From the NCBI GenBank assembly GCA_016207275.1, contig JACQPY010000014.1, positions 6,035-70,034 of the forward strand: 64,000 nt of DNA, in the 5' to 3' direction. A program made the position numbers and the translations under genes. The notes beneath the pieces were generated by a model. The model was not told where the DNA came from. It searched no databases and was given only the letters and a program-made list of their open reading frames with translations. Below are positions 9,478 to 46,854 of this stretch, piece after piece; position 1 is the first letter of the stretch; each line of letters starts with the position of its first letter. This stretch comes from Candidatus Kerfeldbacteria bacterium (lineage in GTDB: Bacteria; Patescibacteriota; Patescibacteriia; SBBC01).

Positions 9478-10476
9478 TCAAGTCGTTGGCGGTGCTGGGG
9501 ATGACGATTCTGGTACTGCCGTTTCTCGACGGATAGTCAAAAAATGATACAGGAACAACGGCAACAGCACGAGCAGCAGCGGAATATTGCTGGCCAAAGA
9601 CGACTGCGTGTTGCTCGGGGTAGGGTAGGTGATGATATTCTGCTTCTGCCACGCATCAAAATCCACGAGCCACTCTTGAGCGAGCTGCCGGTCTTCGTCA
9701 GTGAGCTGGCACTTCTCTGCGCAGTTCACCACGCTCTTCACACCGTAGTTCTCGGTGGAGACGCCGACGGGTGAGACGGCAGCGGGTTCGCGACTGGCTG
9801 TCGACTTGTCCGTGTCGATCTTCAAAGCGACGTTGAGCGCGGTATTGACCAGCAGGGCCGCTGATACCACCGCGCCAATCAGTCCAGCAAAGGCCACGAG
9901 GTAAAAGTACACCGAACGAAGCGGTCCGGGCTTTTGGCCGGCGGCGCGGTTCTTTCGAGCATCCCCCTGTACCATGCGGATGAAGAACCACCAGTACAGC
10001 GGCAGGGACACGATCAGGAACGACAGGGCATTGACCACATTTCGCTTTTTCTGGAGCGAGGCGGATTGCGCTCCCTTGCCTTCGTTCTTCCAAGTCGCGT
10101 ACTGCTCTTTCCAGGTCTTGAACTGCTCGCGGTCAGCAGTGTTAAACTCGCACTTCTCGTCGCAACTATAGAGAACCGGCCCACCGGCCGCCTTGTCACC
10201 GCTCAAGTACAGCATCGGCGGAGGCGATGCGGCGGGGCGGAACGGATCCTGCGCTTTGGTAAACACCCAGGATTTAAAGCCGAGCTGCAGGAGGTAAATG
10301 GAAGACGCGACCAGGAACGACAGCATCACCAATGACACAATGTGCACGAACGCGTTTTTGACCGCCTCGCCCCGGCCCATCGCCTTCCCTTCCTGCACTA
10401 AGGCAATCACGAAAAACACGATCACGCCGATGGCGATGACTGGAATAAATATCCCGAGTGTACCGTAGAATTCCAT
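9478..10476 (-). CDS. membrane protein with duplicated C-x-E-K-C motif, hypothetical, inserted between rplA and rplK
   Basis: 332-aa ORF, several TM helices; two repeats 'CDEKCEFNTADREQFKTWKEQ' and 'CAEKCQLTDEDRQLAQEWL'; no family recognised. Confidence 0.6.
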   Translation of the reverse strand: MEFYGTLGIFIPVIAIGVIVFFVIALVQEGKAMGRGEAVKNAFVHIVSLVMLSFLVASSIYLLQLGFKSWVFTKAQDPFRPAASPPPMLYLSGDKAAGGPVLYSCDEKCEFNTADREQFKTWKEQYATWKNEGKGAQSASLQKKRNVVNALSFLIVSLPLYWWFFIRMVQGDARKNRAAGQKPGPLRSVYFYLVAFAGLIGAVVSAALLVNTALNVALKIDTDKSTASREPAAVSPVGVSTENYGVKSVVNCAEKCQLTDEDRQLAQEWLVDFDAWQKQNIITYPTPSNTQSSLASNIPLLLVLLPLFLYHFLTIRRETAVPESSSPAPPTT

Positions 10477-10520
10477 GAATGTGAGAATAGCCGTTACGTC
10501 CTGACAATCACTCTAGCGGA

Positions 10521-10946
10521 CTATTCCTCAACCGTCAAACCCATGTTGCGGGCTGTGCCTTCGATAATGCGCATCGCCCCGTCTAAGTCTTTCGCGTTCA
10601 AGTCAGGCAGCTTCTTCTTCGCAATTTCCTTAACCTGAGCCTTGGTCACTTTGCCAACTTTGTTTCGCAGCGGATCGCCGCTGCCCTTGGTAATCCCCGC
10701 CGCCTTCTTTAACAGTTCGGCCGCCGGCGGCGTTTTCAGGATGAAACGGTACGTCCGGTCTTCGAATACGGTCAGTTCCACCGGCGTTACTTCGCCCATC
10801 CGGTCTTTTGTCTGATCATTGAACTTTTTCACGAATTCGCCGATGTTCAAACCGTGCGGGCCGAGCGCCGTGCCAACTGGCGGCGCCGGCGTGGCTTGCC
10901 CGCCGGGAATCTGAAGTTTGATAACGGTCTTAATTTTTTTAGCCAT
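10521..10946 (-). CDS. rplK: 50S ribosomal protein L11
   Basis: '[29 protein letters not shown]' canonical L11. Confidence 0.92.
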
Positions 10947-11044
10947 AGGTAATGCGTTTTAGATAGTGGGCGATCCCCGCCTCCCCTGTATTCAGGGGAG
11001 GCACATGCCATGTCCCAGCGAAGCGGACATGAGCATGGGTGGGG

Positions 11045-11785: not shown

Positions 11786-12041
11786 GTTGATTCACCTTTA
11801 AAATGCCCCGGCGGGGCAGTTCGTATGAAGTAGTGTACTACGCCGCTGAAAAGCCTGTCAAGCACACCTCCCATCGGCCGAGCATAAACGAGGCCGTTCT
11901 AAAAAACGTCGCATCCGAAGCGGCGACGATCAGGGTGTCCCGCCAAAGGCGGGACGGGCCCCTAGCGGAGCCGCGAGGTGCGACACCCAGAGGGAAAGGG
12001 AGGCATCGGAAGGGAAAACCGCTCAAGGTTTTCCCTCCGAG

Positions 12042-13139
12042 CTACACCCGCTTTTCCTCAAACCCAAACGTCAGGTTGGCCAGGGAAACCAGCACCACGG
12101 ACCACGCCGTCATCCAGGCCAGGTCATAATTGATGGCCGCCCAGCCGCCGCCGTTGCGCATGACTTCGCGCAGCGCGTCCGACAAGTAGGTCAGCGGCAG
12201 GTACTGGACAATCCCCTGCAGCCAGGTGGGCATAATCTCCAACGGGAAAAAGGTGCCGCCGAGGAACAGCATCGGGAAGACCACCAGGTTGGCAATCGCC
12301 GGTACGGCTTCGACTGTGCGGGCTACGCCGGAAATGGCAAAGCCCAGCCCTAAAAACATAATTCCGCCGAGGACGACCGCCGGCAGCAGCAGCCAGAGCG
12401 AGCCGATGACGTGGGCCTTGAAAGCAAAGACGCCGACCGCGATCAAGATCACTGCCTGGACCACGGCCACCAGCAAGCGGGTCACCACGTTAGCCGTCAC
12501 GAATTGGTACGGCTTCATGGGCGTCGCCAGCAGCCGCTTGAGAATGCCCTTCTCCTTGTAGTCGACAAAGATGAACGCCGTCGAAAACACCGACATCTGC
12601 ATGATCGCCAAGGCCACGATGCCGGGCAGCAAGAAGTCGATGTACTTGAGGTTTCGGCTGTTGACCTCCTCGGTCGCGACCGCGAACAGCTCTGGCGCGC
12701 CGACGACCGCCAAGTTGGTTTTGTCGAGCACCTGCCGGACGACTGAAATGGCGGTCTGCGCCTGCTGCTGCTCCCCGACGTTGACCAGCGCCTTGACGGT
12801 CTGCTGAACGGGCTGGCTCTCCCCCGCCGGCATCAAGGCATCGGGAATGACAAAGACGACGGAGCGATCGCCCTGCTCGAGTGCGCGGCGCTCGTCTGGT
12901 TCGTTTCCCATCGTGACGTCAAAGGCCGAGATGCCCTGCAGCCGATCCACAAATTGCTGGGTTGGCGGGCTCGGCGTACCGGTCACCAGGCCGACGTCAA
13001 TCTTTGCCACGCTGTCGAAACCAATCAAACCAAAAATGGTCATAATGATAATCGGCACGAACAGCGTGAAGAAGACCGCTTGCCGATTGCGGACGAACAT
13101 TTTAATCGACGACGATGTCAGTTTGACAGTGGTATTCAT
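12042..13139 (-). CDS. ABC-2 type transporter permease
   Basis: 365 aa, N-terminal TM plus large loop then 5 TM; ABC-2 family topology; coupled to ATPase upstream. Confidence 0.7.
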   Translation of the reverse strand: MNTTVKLTSSSIKMFVRNRQAVFFTLFVPIIIMTIFGLIGFDSVAKIDVGLVTGTPSPPTQQFVDRLQGISAFDVTMGNEPDERRALEQGDRSVVFVIPDALMPAGESQPVQQTVKALVNVGEQQQAQTAISVVRQVLDKTNLAVVGAPELFAVATEEVNSRNLKYIDFLLPGIVALAIMQMSVFSTAFIFVDYKEKGILKRLLATPMKPYQFVTANVVTRLLVAVVQAVILIAVGVFAFKAHVIGSLWLLLPAVVLGGIMFLGLGFAISGVARTVEAVPAIANLVVFPMLFLGGTFFPLEIMPTWLQGIVQYLPLTYLSDALREVMRNGGGWAAINYDLAWMTAWSVVLVSLANLTFGFEEKRV

Positions 13140-37732: not shown

Positions 37733-38515
37733 ATGATTGACTTCCATCACAACCGTTCCAAAGCGCCGCGACCGCAATGGTTTGCGCCGGTCGATCGACA
37801 GACCAACGAGCGTCTTGCTCGCACGGTCGTCTGGCTGGTGACTGCGACCTTGGCAACCAATCAGTTCTTGATTGCCTCGATTTCCCCGAAGTCGGCAGGC
37901 GCCTCTCCCCTGGCATCGCTGAAATCGATGCTGGGGATGAAGACGGCCTCGGCCATGGTCATCGTCGGGCCGAAGCTCAATTCCGACGGCAAAACCACCA
38001 GCCTGGTTCAGCAACCGACCATTTCCAGCGTACCGGCCAATCCGAAATCAGGCGATGACCTAACTGATGCTAAGGCCGTCATGCTGGCCACTGGTCGGCC
38101 GCCCTACGCTCCCGATGGCGTCTCCTTCGACGATCCGATCAATGCCCAGAATGTCTGGGTAGCCTACGAACAGAGCATCACGCTCAGCGGCAGTCTGGAA
38201 ACTCGCTACAACAACCTGATCAACGGCTTCACCTGCAACTACTGCTGCGGCGAAGCGGCCATTGTCACGCGCAACCGGCAGTGCGGGTGCGCCCACGCCA
38301 AAGCCGCCCGCGGGTTCTTCAAGTACATGCTGCAAACCTTCGGCGACCAGTACAGCGACGAACAACTGATGGGCGAAGCCTTCCGCTGGCAGGCGATCTG
38401 GTACCCGAAAGGCGCGGTCGAAGACTACCTGCTGGCTACCGGCAAGGCGAATGTCATCGGTCACGCTCCGCACGGCGGCGCTGGTGCTGACAACATGCAC
38501 GGATTAACCACGTAG
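37733..38515 (+). CDS. Cys-rich hypothetical protein (260 aa)
   Basis: N-terminal TM; 'CNYCCGEAAIVTRNRQCGCAHAKAA' cluster; no family recognised. Confidence 0.45.
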   Translation: MIDFHHNRSKAPRPQWFAPVDRQTNERLARTVVWLVTATLATNQFLIASISPKSAGASPLASLKSMLGMKTASAMVIVGPKLNSDGKTTSLVQQPTISSVPANPKSGDDLTDAKAVMLATGRPPYAPDGVSFDDPINAQNVWVAYEQSITLSGSLETRYNNLINGFTCNYCCGEAAIVTRNRQCGCAHAKAARGFFKYMLQTFGDQYSDEQLMGEAFRWQAIWYPKGAVEDYLLATGKANVIGHAPHGGAGADNMHGLTT

Positions 38516-38522
38516 CAGTTAC

Positions 38523-38969
38523 ATGATCAAACGATCAACCATCATCGGCACCATCAGCACGGTCGGCTTACTGGTCGTCTACCTGTCGGTTGTCAGCGCT
38601 TTGTCCGGTTGGTCCACGACCGCAGAGCAATGGTCGAGTTTCTGGCCGTATCTGGTCGGCTTGGCGATCGGTTTCGGTGTCCAGGTCGGGCTCTACGCAT
38701 ACCTTCGCCAGGCCGTTCACCGTAGTCAGTCAACCGGCAAAGTCGTGGCGCTAACTGGTACGACCTCAACCGCCGCCATGGTCTCCTGCTGCACCCACTA
38801 CCTCGTCAACCTCCTGCCCGTTCTCGGCGCCTCGGGTATCGCCACCTTCGTCGGCCAGTATCAGGTCAATCTGTTCTGGGTCGGACTGGCCGCTAACGCC
38901 GCTGGTCTGGCGTACCTGGCTTCGCGGATCATGAAATTCAGGAAACATCTGCCAGCCATGGCTGCTTGA
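38523..38969 (+). CDS. polytopic membrane protein with CC motif (148 aa), hypothetical
   Basis: 4 TM helices, 'VSCCTHYLVNLLP'. Confidence 0.45.
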   Translation: MIKRSTIIGTISTVGLLVVYLSVVSALSGWSTTAEQWSSFWPYLVGLAIGFGVQVGLYAYLRQAVHRSQSTGKVVALTGTTSTAAMVSCCTHYLVNLLPVLGASGIATFVGQYQVNLFWVGLAANAAGLAYLASRIMKFRKHLPAMAA

Positions 38970-40695: not shown

Positions 40696-41332
40696 AGGCA
40701 TCTCCGTCGGGACGTCGATTGTTCTCTCCGCGATCATTCTCGTGGTCGGCGGACTCATCTATCTGAGTGGCCGTGAACGGTCGAGCCCGAGCAGTTCGAC
40801 CGCGGCCGCTGGCGACACCGCCGACCATCACGGCCTGGCCAGCAGCGGTCCGACCTCGAACCTCCAAAACCTCATCAACCAAGCTGCGCCCGACTTCTCG
40901 CTGACCGATCACAACGGCGTGACCTATTCCCTGGCTAGTCTGAAAGGGAAAAACGTGGTCTTATTCTTCAACGAGGGTGTCATGTGTTACCCGGCCTGCT
41001 GGAATCAGGTTGCTCTCTTTGGCGCGGATGATCGGTTCAAGGGCGACGACGTCGTTGCGCTGTCGGTGGTGGTGGATAGTCAACAGGAATGGAATGAAGC
41101 AGTCCGTCAGCTTCCCGAGCTGGCCCAAGCCACGGTCGTTCATGATAACGGCGCAAAAGTATCCTCCGCCTACGGAGTGCTGACCACCAAGTCCTCAATG
41201 CACTACGGCCAGCTGCCGGGCCACACCTACGTCGTGATCGACCAGAACGGCATCATCCGCCACGTCTACGACGATCCGAACATGGCCATTCACAATGACC
41301 AGCTCGTTGAAGAGATCGCCAAACTGTCGTAA
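40679..41332 (+). CDS. membrane-anchored redoxin/TlpA-like thioredoxin-fold protein
   Basis: N-terminal TM; 'FSLTDHNGVTYSLASLKGKNVVLFFNEGVMCYPAC' AhpC/TSA-redoxin-like arrangement (non-canonical CxxxC). Confidence 0.5.
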   Translation: MTINHKGISVGTSIVLSAIILVVGGLIYLSGRERSSPSSSTAAAGDTADHHGLASSGPTSNLQNLINQAAPDFSLTDHNGVTYSLASLKGKNVVLFFNEGVMCYPACWNQVALFGADDRFKGDDVVALSVVVDSQQEWNEAVRQLPELAQATVVHDNGAKVSSAYGVLTTKSSMHYGQLPGHTYVVIDQNGIIRHVYDDPNMAIHNDQLVEEIAKLS

Positions 41333-41373
41333 ACTTCAGACTAGAGCTTGTAATCTAAAAGGAGGTGATTGAG

Positions 41374-41505
41374 ATGATGGACTACAATATGATGGGTGGT
41401 AGCAACGTCGGCGGCATGATGTTCTTCGCCTGGATTACCTACATCATCGTCAACGTTGCTCTCGTCTACGCAATTCTGTGCATGGCGAAGTATTTGAAAA
41501 AGTAA
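41374..41505 (+). CDS. small hydrophobic peptide (43 aa)
   Basis: ATG 5 nt after AAGGAGGTGA; 'MMDYNMMGGSNVGGMMFFAWITYIIVNVALVYAILCMAKYLKK'; C-terminal 8 aa repeated at 41870-41893. Confidence 0.5.
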   Translation: MMDYNMMGGSNVGGMMFFAWITYIIVNVALVYAILCMAKYLKK

Positions 41506-41540
41506 CATTTCGTAAATTTGCTTTCCTGCTCGTCTTCCCA

Positions 41541-41768
41541 TCACGACCCCCTGGCAGGGTTGAGACAGATATATTCTCGAGTATTCTCAAGGTCACGTTC
41601 GGTGCGGAGAACGTGTTCATGGAACGATCGTTGCCAAAGCGACGCGCCGGGTGTTCTTTGCATACGATTCACCGCAGCGGCTGAAAACGTTTTGAAACCC
41701 CGGATGATTTCTGTAAGTGGGTGCTGGACGGTGCCACGCCCCCTCCGTAGCTGCGGGTGTATAACCAT
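41541..41768 (-). pseudogene. C-terminal fragment of IS200/IS605-type (RAYT-like, Y1) transposase
   Basis: 'EIIRGFKTFSAAAVNRMQRTPGASLWQRSFHEHVLRTERDLENTREYICLNPAR' matches the conserved C-terminal half (…LKG.ss..i..…..WQr.f.dhviR.e.dl…r.YI..NP); HuH N-terminal half absent. Confidence 0.5.
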
Positions 41769-41827
41769 GACGTAACATGTTCTTCCTCGCTCGAAAAAAC
41801 CTTTTCGCTGAAAAAACCCGCTTAATC

Positions 41828-41893
41828 ATGTCCATCAGCGGCGTGGCCTTGATCCACTCAATTCCGGGCATGGCTAAATATCTCAAAAAGTAA
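41828..41893 (+). other. 21-codon ORF duplicating the C-terminus of the 43-aa peptide (MSISGVALIHSIPGMAKYLKK)
   Basis: shares 'GMAKYLKK*' / 'CMAKYLKK*' with 41374-41505; no SD; possibly the displaced original 3' end after transposase insertion. Confidence 0.25.
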
Positions 41894-41903
41894 ACCCCAC
41901 CGC

Positions 41904-43019
41904 GTGCCGACCCTCCTCATCGCCCTCCGCAATCTGTTCGGCGAACGCAGCCGGTTCGTCATCACCGTAACTGGCGTGACGTTCTCGGTTGTGCTAATCA
42001 TCATTCTTCAGGCTCTCTACCAGGGCTGGAGCTTTAAGACCGGCCAGTACATCCGGGCCCAGGACGCCGACCTATGGGTAGCCCAGGCCGGCTCGCGCGA
42101 CATGTTCCACAGCATTTCGTTGCTGCCGGCAAGCGCTGCCAGCGCGATTGCTTCCCTCGACGGAGTGGCCAAGGTCAGGCCGTTCGTCGGCAAACGCGTC
42201 GGCCTCCACATTGATGACAAGGACCGCGTCCTCTACCTCGTCCGCGACGACGGGAGTTCGGATCGGACTGGCCCGGTACGCCTGGAGCAAGGGGGATCAC
42301 CACCGCGACCCGGCGAAATCATAGTCGACCGTATTTTCGCCAACAACAACGGACTGGTGATCGGCGACAGCCTCGAGATCGGCAATCAACGGTTCACCAT
42401 CGCCGGACTGGCCAGCGGCGGCGATTTGGTCACGCTCTCGTTCGCTTTCATCAACGCCGAGGACGCTGACCGAATGTTCCAACTCCCCAACCTGGTCAAC
42501 TACTTCTTAGTCAAGCTCAAGCCAGCGACTGACCAACCGCCTATCGCCGGGAGCATTACCTCGCTGTTCGATAACGCCACTGTCTTTCCGAAAGACGAAT
42601 TCGTCAGCATCAACGGCGAATTCATCCGTGAATCGTTCCTGCCGATCATCTTCGTCCTGGTCCTCATCGGCGTGGCCGTCGGCATCGTTGTCATCGGGCT
42701 GACTATCTTCACTTCCACGATCGACAAATCGCGCGAGTTCGGCGTGCTGAAGGCGATTGGCGCAAGCGGAACGCACCTCAACCGTATCGTCGCTATCCAA
42801 TCGCTCGTCGCCAGCCTCTTCGGATACACAGCTGGAACGATAGTGGCAATCCTCCTCGGCTTGGTAGTCGGCAGGTACGTTCCAGAGTTCGTCGTCCTCT
42901 TCCGCCCGATTGACTTTGCCTGGATTTTTGCCGTGGCCGTGGCCATGGCCCTGCTGGCCGCCCTCATTCCGATCCGACGGATCGCCAGCATCAACCCGGC
43001 TGACGTTTTCAAAGCCTAG
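41904..43019 (+). CDS. ABC transporter permease, FtsX/MacB-like
   Basis: N-terminal TM, ~200-aa extracytoplasmic domain, C-terminal 3-TM FtsX-like region; GTG start. Confidence 0.75.
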   Translation: MPTLLIALRNLFGERSRFVITVTGVTFSVVLIIILQALYQGWSFKTGQYIRAQDADLWVAQAGSRDMFHSISLLPASAASAIASLDGVAKVRPFVGKRVGLHIDDKDRVLYLVRDDGSSDRTGPVRLEQGGSPPRPGEIIVDRIFANNNGLVIGDSLEIGNQRFTIAGLASGGDLVTLSFAFINAEDADRMFQLPNLVNYFLVKLKPATDQPPIAGSITSLFDNATVFPKDEFVSINGEFIRESFLPIIFVLVLIGVAVGIVVIGLTIFTSTIDKSREFGVLKAIGASGTHLNRIVAIQSLVASLFGYTAGTIVAILLGLVVGRYVPEFVVLFRPIDFAWIFAVAVAMALLAALIPIRRIASINPADVFKA

Positions 43020-43020
43020 C

Positions 43021-43758
43021 ATGGTCGAGCTTCAAAAGATTACCAAAATCTTCGGCCGGGGAGAAACCTCCGTTCACGCCGTCAACAACGTCAGCCTGAA
43101 CATTCAGCCGGGCGAGATCGTCGTCATTATGGGACCGTCGGGATCAGGCAAGACCACACTCGTCTCAATTGCGGGCGGGTTGATGAAACCAACTGATGGA
43201 ACTATCATCATCGACGGCACCGACATCACCGCGAAAAACGAGCGCCAGCTGCCGAAGATTCGCCTGACCACCATGGGTTTCATCTTCCAGTCGTTTAACC
43301 TGCTACAGAATCTAACGGCTATGGAAAACGCGGCCATTCCCCTGCTCCTCGCTGGCCAGTCAAAGCAGACGGCCTTTGATAAAAGCCGGGCCCTGCTTGA
43401 ACGGCTCAACCTCAGCCATCGGTCTCACGCTCGTCCGCGAGAACTGTCCGGCGGCGAGCAGCAGCGCGTAGCCATTGCCCGGGCCCTCGTGAACAACCCA
43501 AAAGTCATTTTCGCCGACGAACCGACTGCCAACCTTGACCGGGCGATCGGCCACCAGGTCATGCAGCTCCTCTGCTCGGTCGGCTGCGAGCAGGGCAAGA
43601 GCGTCATCATCGTCAGCCACGACGAACGCATTAAGGATGTTGCCCACCGGGTGATTTACATCGAGGATGGTAAGCTCATACGCGAGGAACCGGGTCAGCA
43701 CAACCGCATCTGCACCATGCGCGCTCACTCGTACCAATTGCGCGACCAACGCGCTTGA
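43021..43758 (+). CDS. ABC transporter ATP-binding protein (MacB/LolD-like)
   Basis: 'GPSGSGKTT', 'LSGGEQQRVAIARAL', 'IFADEPTANLD'; starts 2 nt after permease stop. Confidence 0.9.
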   Translation: MVELQKITKIFGRGETSVHAVNNVSLNIQPGEIVVIMGPSGSGKTTLVSIAGGLMKPTDGTIIIDGTDITAKNERQLPKIRLTTMGFIFQSFNLLQNLTAMENAAIPLLLAGQSKQTAFDKSRALLERLNLSHRSHARPRELSGGEQQRVAIARALVNNPKVIFADEPTANLDRAIGHQVMQLLCSVGCEQGKSVIIVSHDERIKDVAHRVIYIEDGKLIREEPGQHNRICTMRAHSYQLRDQRA

Positions 43759-43801
43759 CAATTAAGCTCATCACTACTAGGCTTTTTCGTAGCATTTGCC
43801 T

Positions 43802-44194
43802 ATGCCCCGTTTCCTGACCACGACCGTCCTCATCGCCTTCAGCCTTAGCCTGATGCTGAGCGTCTGGCTGTTATCTTCCTGCAGCGCCCACACGCTGGCC
43901 AGCCTGCAACCGTTTGCTCCCTACGTTAATGCTTGTTCCCTGTCAGCGGGCACTGAACACGTCCAACTCTGGAAAACGCTGCTGCTGACCTTCGTGCTCA
44001 CCACCGTCGTCCTCGGGACTATCCGCCTTACCGCCACAGTTGTTCAGGGATTCGTCACCTATGCGATTGTTCCGCTGGCTACGCAGTCCTGGCCGAACAC
44101 CGATAAAGACCGAGACTGGCGACTCAAGCGGCGTGATCCGCTCGCTGTCGCCCTTGCTTCCGGCATTCTGCAGCACGGTTCTCGCAATCACTAG
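43802..44194 (+). CDS. membrane protein, hypothetical
   Basis: 3 TM helices; followed by hairpin + T-rich tract. Confidence 0.45.
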   Translation: MPRFLTTTVLIAFSLSLMLSVWLLSSCSAHTLASLQPFAPYVNACSLSAGTEHVQLWKTLLLTFVLTTVVLGTIRLTATVVQGFVTYAIVPLATQSWPNTDKDRDWRLKRRDPLAVALASGILQHGSRNH

Positions 44195-44288: not shown

Positions 44289-44756
44289 ATGAAACTTCGC
44301 CCTGCCTACACGACTACCCTCGTCCTCGCCAGCTTCGGCTTGCTCTTGTCCGGCTACCTGTCGTACTGGAACCTGTGGGGCCCGAGCTGCCATCAAGGGC
44401 CGCTCAGCTGGCTGGTCAGCTGCGGCGGGCCGCAGAAAGTCCTGATCTTCGGTTTGCCGACCTGCGTCTACGGTTTCTTCATGTACCTGGCCGTAGCCGT
44501 CACCGCCTTGATTGGATTGACCAGCAACAAACACCGCGGAACGACCGCTACCCTCATCGGCCTCGGATCGCTCGGTACGGCCTTTGCTGGCGGATTAATG
44601 ATCTACGAAATCTTTGTTTTGAAACTGACCTTCACCACGGTGCCAGCCTGCGTCTACGGCTTGGTCCTCTACCTCGGCATCCTCACTGCCGCCATCGTCG
44701 GTCGACGGTCAATCAGTCGCTCTCCAGCGTCACCGCCGTCGGATAGGCTACCTTGA
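44289..44756 (+). CDS. VKOR-like membrane protein candidate (4 TM, conserved Cys)
   Basis: loop Cys pair 'SCHQGPLSWLVSCGG' followed by 'VLIFGLPTCVYGFFMY' resembling the VKOR loop-Cys/'S.Y..fGiP' region; canonical CxxC not evident, so tentative. Confidence 0.3.
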   Translation: MKLRPAYTTTLVLASFGLLLSGYLSYWNLWGPSCHQGPLSWLVSCGGPQKVLIFGLPTCVYGFFMYLAVAVTALIGLTSNKHRGTTATLIGLGSLGTAFAGGLMIYEIFVLKLTFTTVPACVYGLVLYLGILTAAIVGRRSISRSPASPPSDRLP

Positions 44757-44906: not shown

Positions 44907-46043
44907 ATGGGCACCGACTACGGTATGCGCATTGCCGCTCTGGCCGCCTATGCGTCGCCGCAAGTGGTGACGAACGACGAGATTGCCGAGCGCCTCCGCC
45001 AGGCGATGGTCCAACTCGATGATCGGCTGAAGCGCGAGCGTGGGGTAGGACTGAGCGAAGATGAACAGCGGAGGTTCATGACGAACGCCCGGTGGATTCA
45101 GAAGAACATCGGCTTTACCGAGCGTCGGTTCTGCCAGCCCGGCCAGGGAACGATCGACCTCGCGATCGAAGCCAGTCGGCTCCTCATCAACCAAACCGGC
45201 ATCCCGCCGTCGAGCATTGGCGCCATTCTCTTCGGCACCGTCACCTCCTCCTATCTCTATTCCCCGCCTGATGCCGCGCTCCTTCAAGCCGCGCTCGGCA
45301 TTCCGGCCTGGAACGGGCCTTTCCCGCGGGAGACGTTCGGCGCCGACGTCAGCCTCGCCTGCAGTACCTGGGGCACAGCTCTCCGGATCGCGTACAACTT
45401 CATGCATGAAGTCGAGCACGTCCTCGTCATCGGAGCGGACGCGATGAGTGCCGCGATCAGCTGGCACGATCGGGCCTTCGCCTGCGTCCTCGGTAATGCC
45501 GGCACCGCGACGCTCTGCTCGCGCGTACCGCTCGAGGAAGACTGGTTCGGGCCGGAACGCTTCTTCAGCTGGCTCGATGGCAGCCGGGCCGAAGTGATTT
45601 CGACGCCGGTCGGCGGCTCGAAGCGTCCGCTCACCAGCTACCAAGAACTCGACACCTACCAGCACCGGCTGCGCATGGATGGGGCACGGGTTCGCCAGGA
45701 CATGGTACCGTTCATCAGCGGTCCGGGGATCGACGCCGTTCTGGCGAAGACACGCCTGAACCTGGCGGACATCGACCATCTCGTCCTCCACGAAGCGAAC
45801 GGCGTGCTCAACCGCGACATTGTCAGGAACTGGGAGCAGCGCGGCTTTCGCGGAACAGCGCTCAACGCTGGCGGCCGGTTCGGCAACACGACGAGTGCCA
45901 GCATTCCGCTCGCGCTCGCGCTCAACCCCGACGCCTTGGGCATCGGAAAAACCATCGCCCTGGTGGCGTTCGGCGGCGGCTACTCGATGAACACCGCGAT
46001 CGCCACCATCAAACATCCGTTCCCCGTTTGGGCGAACGTCTGA
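44907..46043 (+). CDS. 3-oxoacyl-ACP synthase III (FabH)-like condensing enzyme
   Basis: active-site 'LACSTWGTAL' Cys, 'LHEANGVLN' His, 'GRFGNTTSASIPLALAL' Asn region in FabH order; AAAGGAGGTG SD. Confidence 0.7.
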   Translation: MGTDYGMRIAALAAYASPQVVTNDEIAERLRQAMVQLDDRLKRERGVGLSEDEQRRFMTNARWIQKNIGFTERRFCQPGQGTIDLAIEASRLLINQTGIPPSSIGAILFGTVTSSYLYSPPDAALLQAALGIPAWNGPFPRETFGADVSLACSTWGTALRIAYNFMHEVEHVLVIGADAMSAAISWHDRAFACVLGNAGTATLCSRVPLEEDWFGPERFFSWLDGSRAEVISTPVGGSKRPLTSYQELDTYQHRLRMDGARVRQDMVPFISGPGIDAVLAKTRLNLADIDHLVLHEANGVLNRDIVRNWEQRGFRGTALNAGGRFGNTTSASIPLALALNPDALGIGKTIALVAFGGGYSMNTAIATIKHPFPVWANV

Positions 46044-46101: not shown

Positions 46102-46854
46102 TCAGCGGGTAAACCTATTCCCCCACCAGAACGTGAGGATGTACACCGCCGGGAGTGCGAACAGTGTGACGGACCACACGAACTTTGTCACCTTTTCACC
46201 GAACATCGAAGCGATGCGCACGAAAAGCATGAATGCGAGGAACCAGCCGACGAGCAAGCCTGCACCAGGCCATTCAGGATGGACAAGCTCTTTCTCTCCT
46301 CCCTTCTGGTACCAAGAGATCCACGCCGGGAGCTTCAGCGCACCGACGTGGAGCACAACGAGGAGAAACCCAATGCGCATCCCCCAGTTCTGCAGTACTC
46401 GCCAACGGTTCACTCCAAGGCGTTCCCTCAGGAATCGATACGAAATCACGAGCAGGATCGCAAAAACGACGAGTGCTACAACCCCGAAGAGCACTGACCA
46501 AAGATTCTCGACAAACCAGGTTCTTGAAAAATGAGACTCAAGGAAAAAAGACGACACCACGCTATGCACGAGCGCGAGGAAAAACGCAACAATGCCGAGT
46601 TCTTTACGGAGATCGATGCTCTGTTGAAGACCGGGGAAGGAACGCCGAAGTGGTCCGAGGATAAGGACAAGTCCAAAGAGGATTGCAGCAACACCTGCAA
46701 AGATTTTGTTCGCGATGAACAGGTCGTAGTACCCACGCCGGAAGAACAGGTACAGCGAGAGCAGTGCGAATGGCAAGACCGCGATGACCACAGCTGTACG
46801 GTACCGACGAAATGCATCTGCAACCGTGGGTGGTTCGTGCCTTCTCCCGTTCAT
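46102..46854 (-). CDS. polytopic membrane protein, hypothetical (conserved His in TM helices)
   Basis: 6 TM helices with His residues ('LALVHSVVSSFF', 'LLVVLHVGAL'); ferric-reductase/MsrQ-like topology possible. Confidence 0.4.
   Translation of the reverse strand: MNGRRHEPPTVADAFRRYRTAVVIAVLPFALLSLYLFFRRGYYDLFIANKIFAGVAAILFGLVLILGPLRRSFPGLQQSIDLRKELGIVAFFLALVHSVVSSFFLESHFSRTWFVENLWSVLFGVVALVVFAILLVISYRFLRERLGVNRWRVLQNWGMRIGFLLVVLHVGALKLPAWISWYQKGGEKELVHPEWPGAGLLVGWFLAFMLFVRIASMFGEKVTKFVWSVTLFALPAVYILTFWWGNRFTR

Follow-up and report, generated by a model that had tools for sequence, protein, structure and literature searches.

An intact micro-protein gene and a probable recombination scar ahead of a MacB-type exporter in a Candidatus Kerfeldbacteria genome

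How did two small open reading frames (ORFs) with the same C-terminus come to lie on either side of a transposase fragment, directly upstream of an ABC exporter? The question is raised by positions 41374-43758 of a 64,000-nucleotide stretch (the window) of a Candidatus Kerfeldbacteria bacterium genome (GCA_016207275.1, contig JACQPY010000014.1). Along the plus strand, the locus consists of the first ORF (P1), a minus-strand remnant of a REP-associated tyrosine transposase (RAYT) gene, the second ORF (P2), a MacB-type permease and an ABC ATPase, with 398 nt between P1 and the permease. A sequence-only reading had taken it for a bacteriocin-like export or immunity module whose peptide gene was disrupted by an insertion sequence (IS), or alternatively for two paralogous tiny membrane proteins. 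The window was compared with about 30 related loci or contigs, labelled L0nn here; the same-species loci from three samples are identical to it. The comparison indicates that P1 is intact, and that P2 is probably a chimeric scar formed between two variants of one peptide-permease-ATPase module.

P1 (41374-41505, plus strand) encodes a product of 43 aa, MMDYNMMGGSNVGGMMFFAWITYIIVNVALVYAILCMAKYLKK. The excellent Shine-Dalgarno sequence credited to it before is indeed present, as AGGAGGTG at 41360-41367 on the plus strand, 6 nt before the ATG, and the same AGGAGGTG also lies 5' of the orthologues in L002, L012, L013, L036 and a sister species (GCA_016204585.1). Orthologues of 43-45 aa occur in many genomes, the closest with 77-91% identity to P1, and since its length and C-terminus equal theirs, P1 is undisrupted. 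A search of 5.8 billion proteins returned 17 matching clusters of 43-55 aa with 67-100% identity, and a profile search of 1.84 billion representatives yielded a family of 26 representatives at 50% clustering, nearly all of 40-48 aa. The genome matches of this family belong almost entirely to the candidate phyla radiation (CPR, or Patescibacteria), namely Kerfeldbacteria, Microgenomates, Paceibacterota, Saccharibacteria, Buchananbacteria and Chaera; the non-CPR matches are one Woesearchaeota metagenome-assembled genome (MAG) and three MAGs labelled uncultured Gammaproteobacteria (L015, L018, L019). The family consensus is MM(D/N)Y..MM.G.GG..MM(F/L)FAW(I/L)TY, followed by a hydrophobic helix and K(Y/F)(I/L).KK. 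P1 carries each of the family marks: a length of 43-45 aa, a Met-rich N-terminal MM(D/N)(Y/F)..MM, FAW(I/L)TY, a single hydrophobic helix and, at its basic end, K(Y/F)(L/I/V)xKK. The mean column identity among close relatives is 83%, and the nucleotide differences among ten close orthologues amount to 139, 44 and 507 at codon positions 1, 2 and 3, respectively, as expected for a translated gene under strong purifying selection. P1, the family variants and P2 gave only noise (E>0.1) in Pfam and NCBIfam scans, and no model covers the family; at the DNA level, Rfam returned no match near any gathering score for 41000-42300. Overall, the P1 family consists of undescribed micro-proteins almost confined to CPR bacteria, and P1 itself is an intact gene for a conserved single-pass membrane micro-protein. 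The peptide singled out by the sequence-only reading is therefore conserved across CPR lineages.

Relatives of P1 without an exporter are common, and their neighbours include genes for DUF5676, a candidate DedA-like protein (assigned by eye), Bax-inhibitor-like and DUF2214 proteins, in addition to housekeeping genes. A distant 41-aa relative (MMNYGNMMSSGFGIFALLTWLLVIVNLVLLAVWLWKQIQKN, L037:4085-4210) lies between DUF305 and YHS genes in a CsoR/CopA cluster; a permease/ATPase pair belongs to the same cluster, but does not adjoin the peptide. In one Kerfeldbacteria genome, the place of the permease behind the peptide is taken by a Cys/His-rich ORF of 61 aa (MIRRWHMKCPKCNG...CTMRCKECGKADVHCTCV, L009:6159-6344), which bears a C-T-M triplet resembling the tail of the exporter ATPases described below.

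An uninterrupted peptide gene beside the exporter, which the sequence-only reading had proposed to look for in relatives, is found in six loci. The distance from the peptide stop to the start of the MacB-type permease is 12 nt in L002, 5 nt in L012, 18 nt in L014, 16 nt in L015, 0 nt in L025 and 12 nt in L036; the permeases at these junctions possess no Shine-Dalgarno sequence of their own, and the ATPase gene comes next. The permeases are of two types. Type-A permeases (L002, L012, L014, L015, L023 and L025) start with MFFLAR(K/R)NLF and are 37-43% identical to the window permease, compared to 68-74% for the type-B permeases (L010, L013, L034 and L036), which start with MPTLLIALRNLFGER. With type-A and type-B permeases only ~40% identical, two diverged versions of the module can be distinguished. 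L036 presents the native type-B junction, in which an intact peptide gene directly precedes a type-B permease. In the window, the MacB-like pair reported before is borne out, with a type-B permease of 371 aa (41904-43019, plus strand, GTG start; Pfam MacB_PCD and FtsX domains) followed by an ABC ATPase of 245 aa (43021-43758, plus strand; ABC_tran 2.9e-36, motifs intact). This permease is on deposit as a protein of a Candidatus Kerfeldbacteria MAG.

Against this background, P2 resolves into two parts of different origin. The 21-codon ORF described before starts at ATG 41828 and encodes MSISGVALIHSIPGMAKYLKK; the same frame is open from ATG 41777, which gives 38 codons (MFFLARKNLFAEKTRLIMSISGVALIHSIPGMAKYLKK). 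P1 and P2 both terminate in MAKYLKK and a stop codon, and a repeat search of the window placed their shared ends in a 61-nt direct repeat (41445-41505 versus 41833-41893) with 72% identity at a spacing of 388 nt. Over the final 42 nt of P2, 33 positions match P1, a likeness beyond chance, since nothing elsewhere in the 64-kb window reaches 31/42 on either strand. When the two peptide regions are aligned at the nucleotide level, as the sequence-only reading had recommended, this tail matches, and the head of P2 corresponds to the 5' end of a type-A permease gene. The first 25 codons of P2 (MFFLARKNLFAEKTRLIMSISGVAL, 41777-41851, plus strand) match the type-A permease start at L012:6141-6215 in 65/75 nt (87%) and 24/25 aa, and that of L023 in 64/75 nt, compared to only 44/75 nt (59%) for the resident type-B permease. 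This head reads MFFLARKNLF; the family N-terminus (MMDY..MM) and FAW(I/L)TY are missing, and just the MAKYLKK end is retained. The tail (IHSIPGMAKYLKK, 41852-41893, plus strand) appears as the decayed 3' end of a peptide gene. The two meet in a crossover zone (41833-41851, plus strand) inside the 61-nt repeat; the DNA of peptide codons 24-30 (IIVNVAL) is in part similar here to that of type-A permease codons 18-24 (SISGVAF), with the pattern CATC..C..CGT.GC, and both sides encode ..V-A-L/F. From these alignments, P2 is deduced to be a chimera of two gene ends, permA(1-25)::pep(31-43), rather than a detached end of P1 or a small paralogue of it, as had been supposed.

The fragment between P1 and P2 (41541-41773, minus strand), described before as a transposase fragment, matches the NCBIfam model NF047646 (REP-associated tyrosine transposase) with E=6.4e-11 and 42.3 bits (cut-off 80 bits) over positions 71-133 of the 146-position profile, and also matches Pfam Y1_Tnp. 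The C-terminal half is kept, an internal deletion is present, and the N-terminal ~60 residues (the 5' third) and the HUH motif are gone. Because the score is below the cut-off, the profile is covered in part and the HUH segment is deleted, the fragment is regarded as a gene remnant. The stop codons of P1 and the RAYT are 35 nt apart (41506-41540), and the sister species shares this flank. The sister locus is a composite from three assemblies: contig L011 of GCA_016204585.1 ends with the peptide, this flank of 35 nt and the RAYT 3' half, whereas the end of contig L034 and the independent Logan contig L035 carry the 5' half, then ~80 nt and then a type-B permease; L011 and L035 join through a 100-nt overlap with one mismatch. 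The composite locus contains a full RAYT of 169 aa at the same site, with the HUH-type motif VMPNHIHG, and no type-A relic. The window remnant is 77% aa identical to residues 92-169 of this protein, and the nucleotide identity between window and sister is 89.7% over 41474-41726. The sister RAYT start is abutted by a hairpin, ggtggct-cattgat-agccacc, and its frame contains a perfect 36-nt palindrome, ccccgtagccgcgggtttaaacccgcggctacgggg (L011:6380-6420, L034:1-25, L035:1-30). The contigs of the three assemblies stop in or beside this palindrome, and the window retains one arm at ~41742-41757.

The ends of the remnant are set within a 7-nt direct repeat, GTAACAT, of which the left copy (41502-41508, plus strand) overlaps the P1 stop codon and the right copy (41772-41778, plus strand) overlaps the start codon (ATG) of the permease relic; the remnant itself stops at 41773, four bases short of this codon. 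Excising the DNA between the two copies gives AAG TAA c ATG TTC, in which a peptide stop and a type-A permease start are 1 nt apart, in a native-like arrangement. No significant inverted repeat flanks the window remnant, no REP arrays were found in the 64-kb window, and a search of the window for other RAYT copies, type-A permease genes and P1 paralogues found none. Compared to RAYT or IS200/IS605-like Y1 transposases, the locus shares the NF047646 and Y1_Tnp matches, with the HUH motif and the hairpin in the sister copy, but the window copy differs in comprising the C-terminal half only, with an internal deletion, no HUH motif and no REP arrays.

The gap between peptide and permease holds differing inserts in other loci: a gene for a 168-aa P-loop protein in L023 (6147-6653), 550 nt with unknown ORFs in L013 (4894-5441) and ~2 kb with four genes in L010 (6136-8215); in the window, the gap (41506-41903) holds the RAYT remnant. 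RAYT-type and other inserts have repeatedly entered the peptide-permease junction, which therefore resembles a hotspot of recurrent insertion. In L010 and L013, the type-B permease and the ATPase are split by a second, unrelated full-length RAYT-like gene on the minus strand (L010:9570-10259, 229 aa; L013:7064-7729, 221 aa), with PNH(V/F)HLL motifs. The L010 ATPase (10205-10963) lacks the H-loop segment, and 1 kb further downstream (11987-12112) is a spare copy of the ATPase C-terminus, metal tail included; this module appears to be decaying.

We consider it likely that the intact P1 and the chimeric P2 record recombination between two module variants. P1 would at first have preceded a type-A permease gene, and a RAYT element would then have inserted directly past the P1 stop and later decayed. 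An illegitimate crossover, or a deletion between two modules, may have joined permease codon ~25 to codon ~31 of the peptide gene of a type-B module, the joint being placed where the helix-coding regions of the two genes share some sequence similarity. The end product would be P1, the RAYT remnant, permA(1-25)::pep(31-43), permB and the ATPase. In the window, the P2 tail ends 10 nt before the type-B permease (spacer 41894-41903, plus strand, without a Shine-Dalgarno sequence), compared to the 12 nt that follow the intact peptide gene in L036. The surrounding genes are mosaic in their identities. Identities to the sister species are 76-85% for a 260-aa protein (37733-38515), a membrane protein of 148 aa (38523-38969) and the YHS protein, whereas the window DsbD shares 66% identity with the sister and 83% with L013; sliding-window nucleotide identities against the sister, L012, L013, L023 and L009 place the 5' end of the redoxin gene nearest to L013 and its middle nearest to L012/L023. 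Recombination between diverged versions of the cluster therefore seems common. The proposed event resembles homology-facilitated illegitimate recombination or microhomology-mediated deletion, with its joint at short partial identity between unrelated coding regions, conserved flanks and mosaic neighbours; it differs in being inferred from one end-product, with donor and recipient not observed.

As a chimera of two gene ends from one crossover or deletion, P2 would be a non-functional scar. Its last 13 codons carry the substitutions V31I, Y32H, A33S, L35P and C36G relative to P1, five non-synonymous changes that fall in the stretch IHSIPG; all changed positions except V31 are invariant or nearly so among close family relatives (Y32 and A33 invariant, L35 nearly). 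The P2 ATG has no Shine-Dalgarno sequence and sits 271 nt past the P1 stop, and no P2 counterpart was found in the sister species or any of the ~30 related loci. P2 is identical across all same-species contigs of the three samples. The idea of a peptide-exporter module broken by an IS thus holds in part: peptide and exporter form a recurrent pair, and a mobile-element remnant lies between them here, but P1 is full length.

Three points weigh against this history. First, the last seven codons of P2 (MAKYLKK) differ from P1 by synonymous changes only and the preceding six by non-synonymous changes only, unlike plain neutral decay. Second, the sliding-window identities show a mosaic without fixing the order of events, and the sister species has P1, the RAYT and permB without the type-A relic, so that extra deletions or independent events or insertions are needed. 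Third, no genome with both modules in tandem was found among the related loci.

Among the alternatives, the junction of peptide and permease may have been duplicated locally in tandem, so that the P1 3' end, the intervening spacer and the start of the permease gene were copied and the downstream permease later diverged or was replaced, with no recombination between two modules. This would yield the exact topology observed, namely a full peptide, a chimera of permease head and peptide tail, and a full permease, and it would fit the 61-nt direct repeat and its spacing. In its plain form, however, it is rejected on the sequence. The relic permease head is only 59% identical to the resident head, compared to 87% for type-A genes elsewhere; the DNA past the second peptide tail is unlike that past P1 (6/40); and just one RAYT copy is present. 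Moreover, the adjacency of the peptide tail and permB needs no duplication, because a native junction of this kind exists in L036. We therefore regard this explanation as unlikely.

Comparably improbable is the retention of P2 as a coupling ORF, on which ribosomes would end 10 nt before the permease GTG, which has no Shine-Dalgarno sequence, and re-initiate there, so that P2 would have taken over the coupling from the peptide gene. Such a role is suggested by the family permeases in six lineages, which start 0-18 nt past the peptide stop without a Shine-Dalgarno sequence, and by P2 keeping an open frame, a stop codon, a native-like spacing and synonymous-only change in its last seven codons. 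In addition, a promoter and terminator scan of 41200-42100 returned one weak promoter-like site, at or below chance level, and no terminators, hence none between P1 and the permease. On the other side stand the distance of the P2 ATG from the P1 stop and its missing Shine-Dalgarno sequence, the sister species, which has the same permease type without such an ORF upstream, and the origin of the data in a single lineage with no variation among samples.

The bacteriocin reading, in which a precursor peptide of the bacteriocin type, or of the ribosomally synthesized and post-translationally modified type, is served by a dedicated MacB-type export or immunity transporter and its gene has been duplicated or split by an IS, is very unlikely. 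It draws on the position of a small hydrophobic peptide, whose gene has a strong Shine-Dalgarno sequence, immediately before an ABC exporter, and on the resemblance of the ATPase to the lactococcin-972-type exporter model TIGR03608 (E=8e-56). The score of 188.7 is below the cut-off of 254.85, however, and also below the LolD, DevA and MacB scores. P1 opens directly with the conserved Met-rich segment and the hydrophobic helix, with no leader or signal, and the Pfam and NCBIfam scans found no C39 peptidase, modification enzyme or leader motif. Unlike fast-evolving bacteriocins, the peptide is kept across CPR lineages, with the column identity given above for close relatives; it often lacks an exporter nearby, P1 is intact, and the combination of a basic C-terminus with one hydrophobic stretch of 23 residues is consistent with an integral membrane protein. 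The locus thus shares with lactococcin 972-type export modules a small ORF upstream of an FtsX-type permease/ATPase pair, but differs in its sub-threshold score, the absence of a leader, the CPR-wide conservation and a metal/redox context. Least probable of all is that P2 serves as a functional diverged paralogue of P1, making two small membrane proteins: the ORF is open from its ATG and shares the MAKYLKK end with synonymous-only differences in those seven codons, but its head is not peptide-like and corresponds to a permease 5' end with 87% nt identity, the family N-terminus and FAW(I/L)TY are absent, conserved residues are replaced (Y32H, A33S, L35P, C36G), and it has neither a Shine-Dalgarno sequence nor a counterpart in the sister species or the ~30 related loci.

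If the exporter is not a bacteriocin transporter, to which class does it belong? The window permease matches PF12704 MacB_PCD (8e-12, 46.3 bits, cut-off 27) and PF02687 FtsX (5.6e-15, 55.9 bits, cut-off 25.5), and the ATPase presents GPSGSGKT at residue 38 (Walker A), LSGGEQQR at 142 (signature), IFADEPT at 163 (Walker B) and SHDE at 199 (H-loop). All NCBIfam equivalog scores are far below their cut-offs, both for the permease (DevC 52.2 bits against 290, LolCE 44.2 against 362, MacB 26.5 against 966, FtsX 8.9 against 250) and for the ATPase (LolD 230 against 308, DevA 226 against 296, FtsE 208 against 265). The nearest solved structures by sequence are MacB (5nik, 5lil) and LolE/LolF. By these scores, the exporter is assigned to a generic MacB-type pair far below the LolCDE, FtsEX, DevCA and MacB cut-offs; a grouping with LolCDE or FtsEX orthologues, which the sequence-only reading had named as a refutation, is thus not reached by score. 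It resembles the MacB-type (type VII) exporters MacB, LolCDE, DevCA, FtsEX and HrtBA in having an N-terminal helix, a MacB_PCD extracytoplasmic domain, an FtsX C-terminal bundle and a separate LolD/DevA/MacB-like ATPase; it differs in that the window locus has no membrane-fusion adaptor gene and that the pair sits in copper/thiol-redox clusters.

A further peculiarity lies at the end of the ATPase. All ten partner ATPases examined (window, L034, L002, L014, L023, L037, L013, L010, L044 and L043) end in the pattern G-x-H-x3-C-x-(M/H)-x0-2-H, which in the window is GQHNRICTMRAH (43693-43728, plus strand). This His/Cys/Met tail is common to type-A partners, type-B partners and the actinobacterial homologue L043, and in a paralogous Kerfeldbacteria module (L039:6112-6981) a whole YHS domain is fused at the tail position. 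The tail or YHS domain looks like a putative cytoplasmic metal-binding or metal-sensing appendage; neither is known to us from the ATPases of characterised MacB-type members.

The gene neighbourhood is of a similar character. Upstream of the window locus lie YHS, DsbD_TM and AhpC/redoxin genes, and past the exporter are a VKOR-family protein (44289-44756) and a ferric-reductase-like membrane protein (46102-46854). Together, the VKOR, ferric reductase, DsbD and redoxin genes suggest an extracytoplasmic thiol/metal redox island. The sister species is without a 132-aa protein (43796-44194), the VKOR-family protein and a 378-aa protein (44907-46043). At the head of the cluster is the 260-aa protein (37733-38515, plus strand), which has a CNYCCGE...CGCAH cysteine motif and no Pfam or NCBIfam match; it is 69-81% conserved in Kerfeldbacteria-like loci, compared to 27% over part of its length in L013. 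In L002, L014, L037, L039 and L044, homologous modules are flanked by CopA, HMA, cupredoxin, CsoR and DUF305 genes. The 20-kb contig L002 carries YHS, DsbD_TM, an AhpC/TSA redoxin, a 44-aa peptide, the 12-nt gap, the MacB permease and the ABC ATPase, and beyond these a CopA-type P-type ATPase, a cupredoxin/DsbD_2 protein and an HMA protein. CopA lies directly upstream of the peptide in L014, and in L037 and L044, CsoR, DUF305, YHS or DsbD, redoxin and CopA surround the permease/ATPase pair.

Because of this metal and thiol-redox neighbourhood and the ATPase tail motif, a copper-linked exporter is favoured as the function of the module, with P1 as a Met-rich accessory micro-protein; we put this forward tentatively, as a possibility. 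The module would be part of a copper and thiol-redox homeostasis cluster, and the His/Cys/Met tail of the ATPase might bind or sense metal. According to the positive-inside rule, the basic KYLKK tail of P1 should stay cytoplasmic, and the Met-rich N-terminus would therefore be outside. P1 would then not be exported itself but would assist the exporter, or other membrane proteins, as a small accessory subunit. It contains three MM pairs (M1-M2, M6-M7, M15-M16), of which M1, M2, M7 and M16 are invariant; their spacing differs from the canonical MxM/MxxM spacing of Ctr1-type copper-binding Met motifs. Small membrane accessory subunits of transporters include VraH with VraDE, in addition to KdpF with KdpABC and AcrZ with AcrB (PMC12648545). 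Like them, P1 has fewer than 50 aa and just one helix, and its gene adjoins the transporter genes within their operon; it differs in showing no homology to them and in having relatives also beside unrelated membrane proteins, and its association is putative. A more speculative extension, which we hold to be rather doubtful, treats the P1 family and the uncharacterised metal-tailed MacB-type clade as one copper-handling machine, in which P1 would capture or present Cu(I) outside and the ATPase tail would sense cytoplasmic metal; as a weaker corollary, P2 might survive through translational coupling to the permease.

Several observations weigh against the copper link. The role is drawn from gene neighbourhood and motif appearance only, and the putative physical association of P1 with the permease from gene adjacency alone (0-18 nt, six lineages). 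The wider WKYINKK subfamily of the peptide has varied neighbours, and just 3 of its 13 loci contain a P-type ATPase gene within 4 kb; the actinobacterial homologue L043 lies outside any copper cluster. A literature search yielded nothing relevant on copper-linked MacB/FtsX transporters or on this cluster in CPR bacteria.

Altogether, the duplication flagged at this locus would be an ordinary rearrangement scar, and the scar a dated footprint of two diverged versions of one operon that recombined in a CPR genome. What is new, and modestly so, is a conserved, unannotated CPR micro-protein family, together with a MacB-type clade that occurs in CsoR/CopA/YHS/DsbD clusters and carries a putative metal-binding ATPase tail. 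If the copper link is true, a copper-linked role, for which no published precedent was found, would be added to the MacB-type exporters, and a role would be assigned to one of the many orphan small proteins in CPR genomes.

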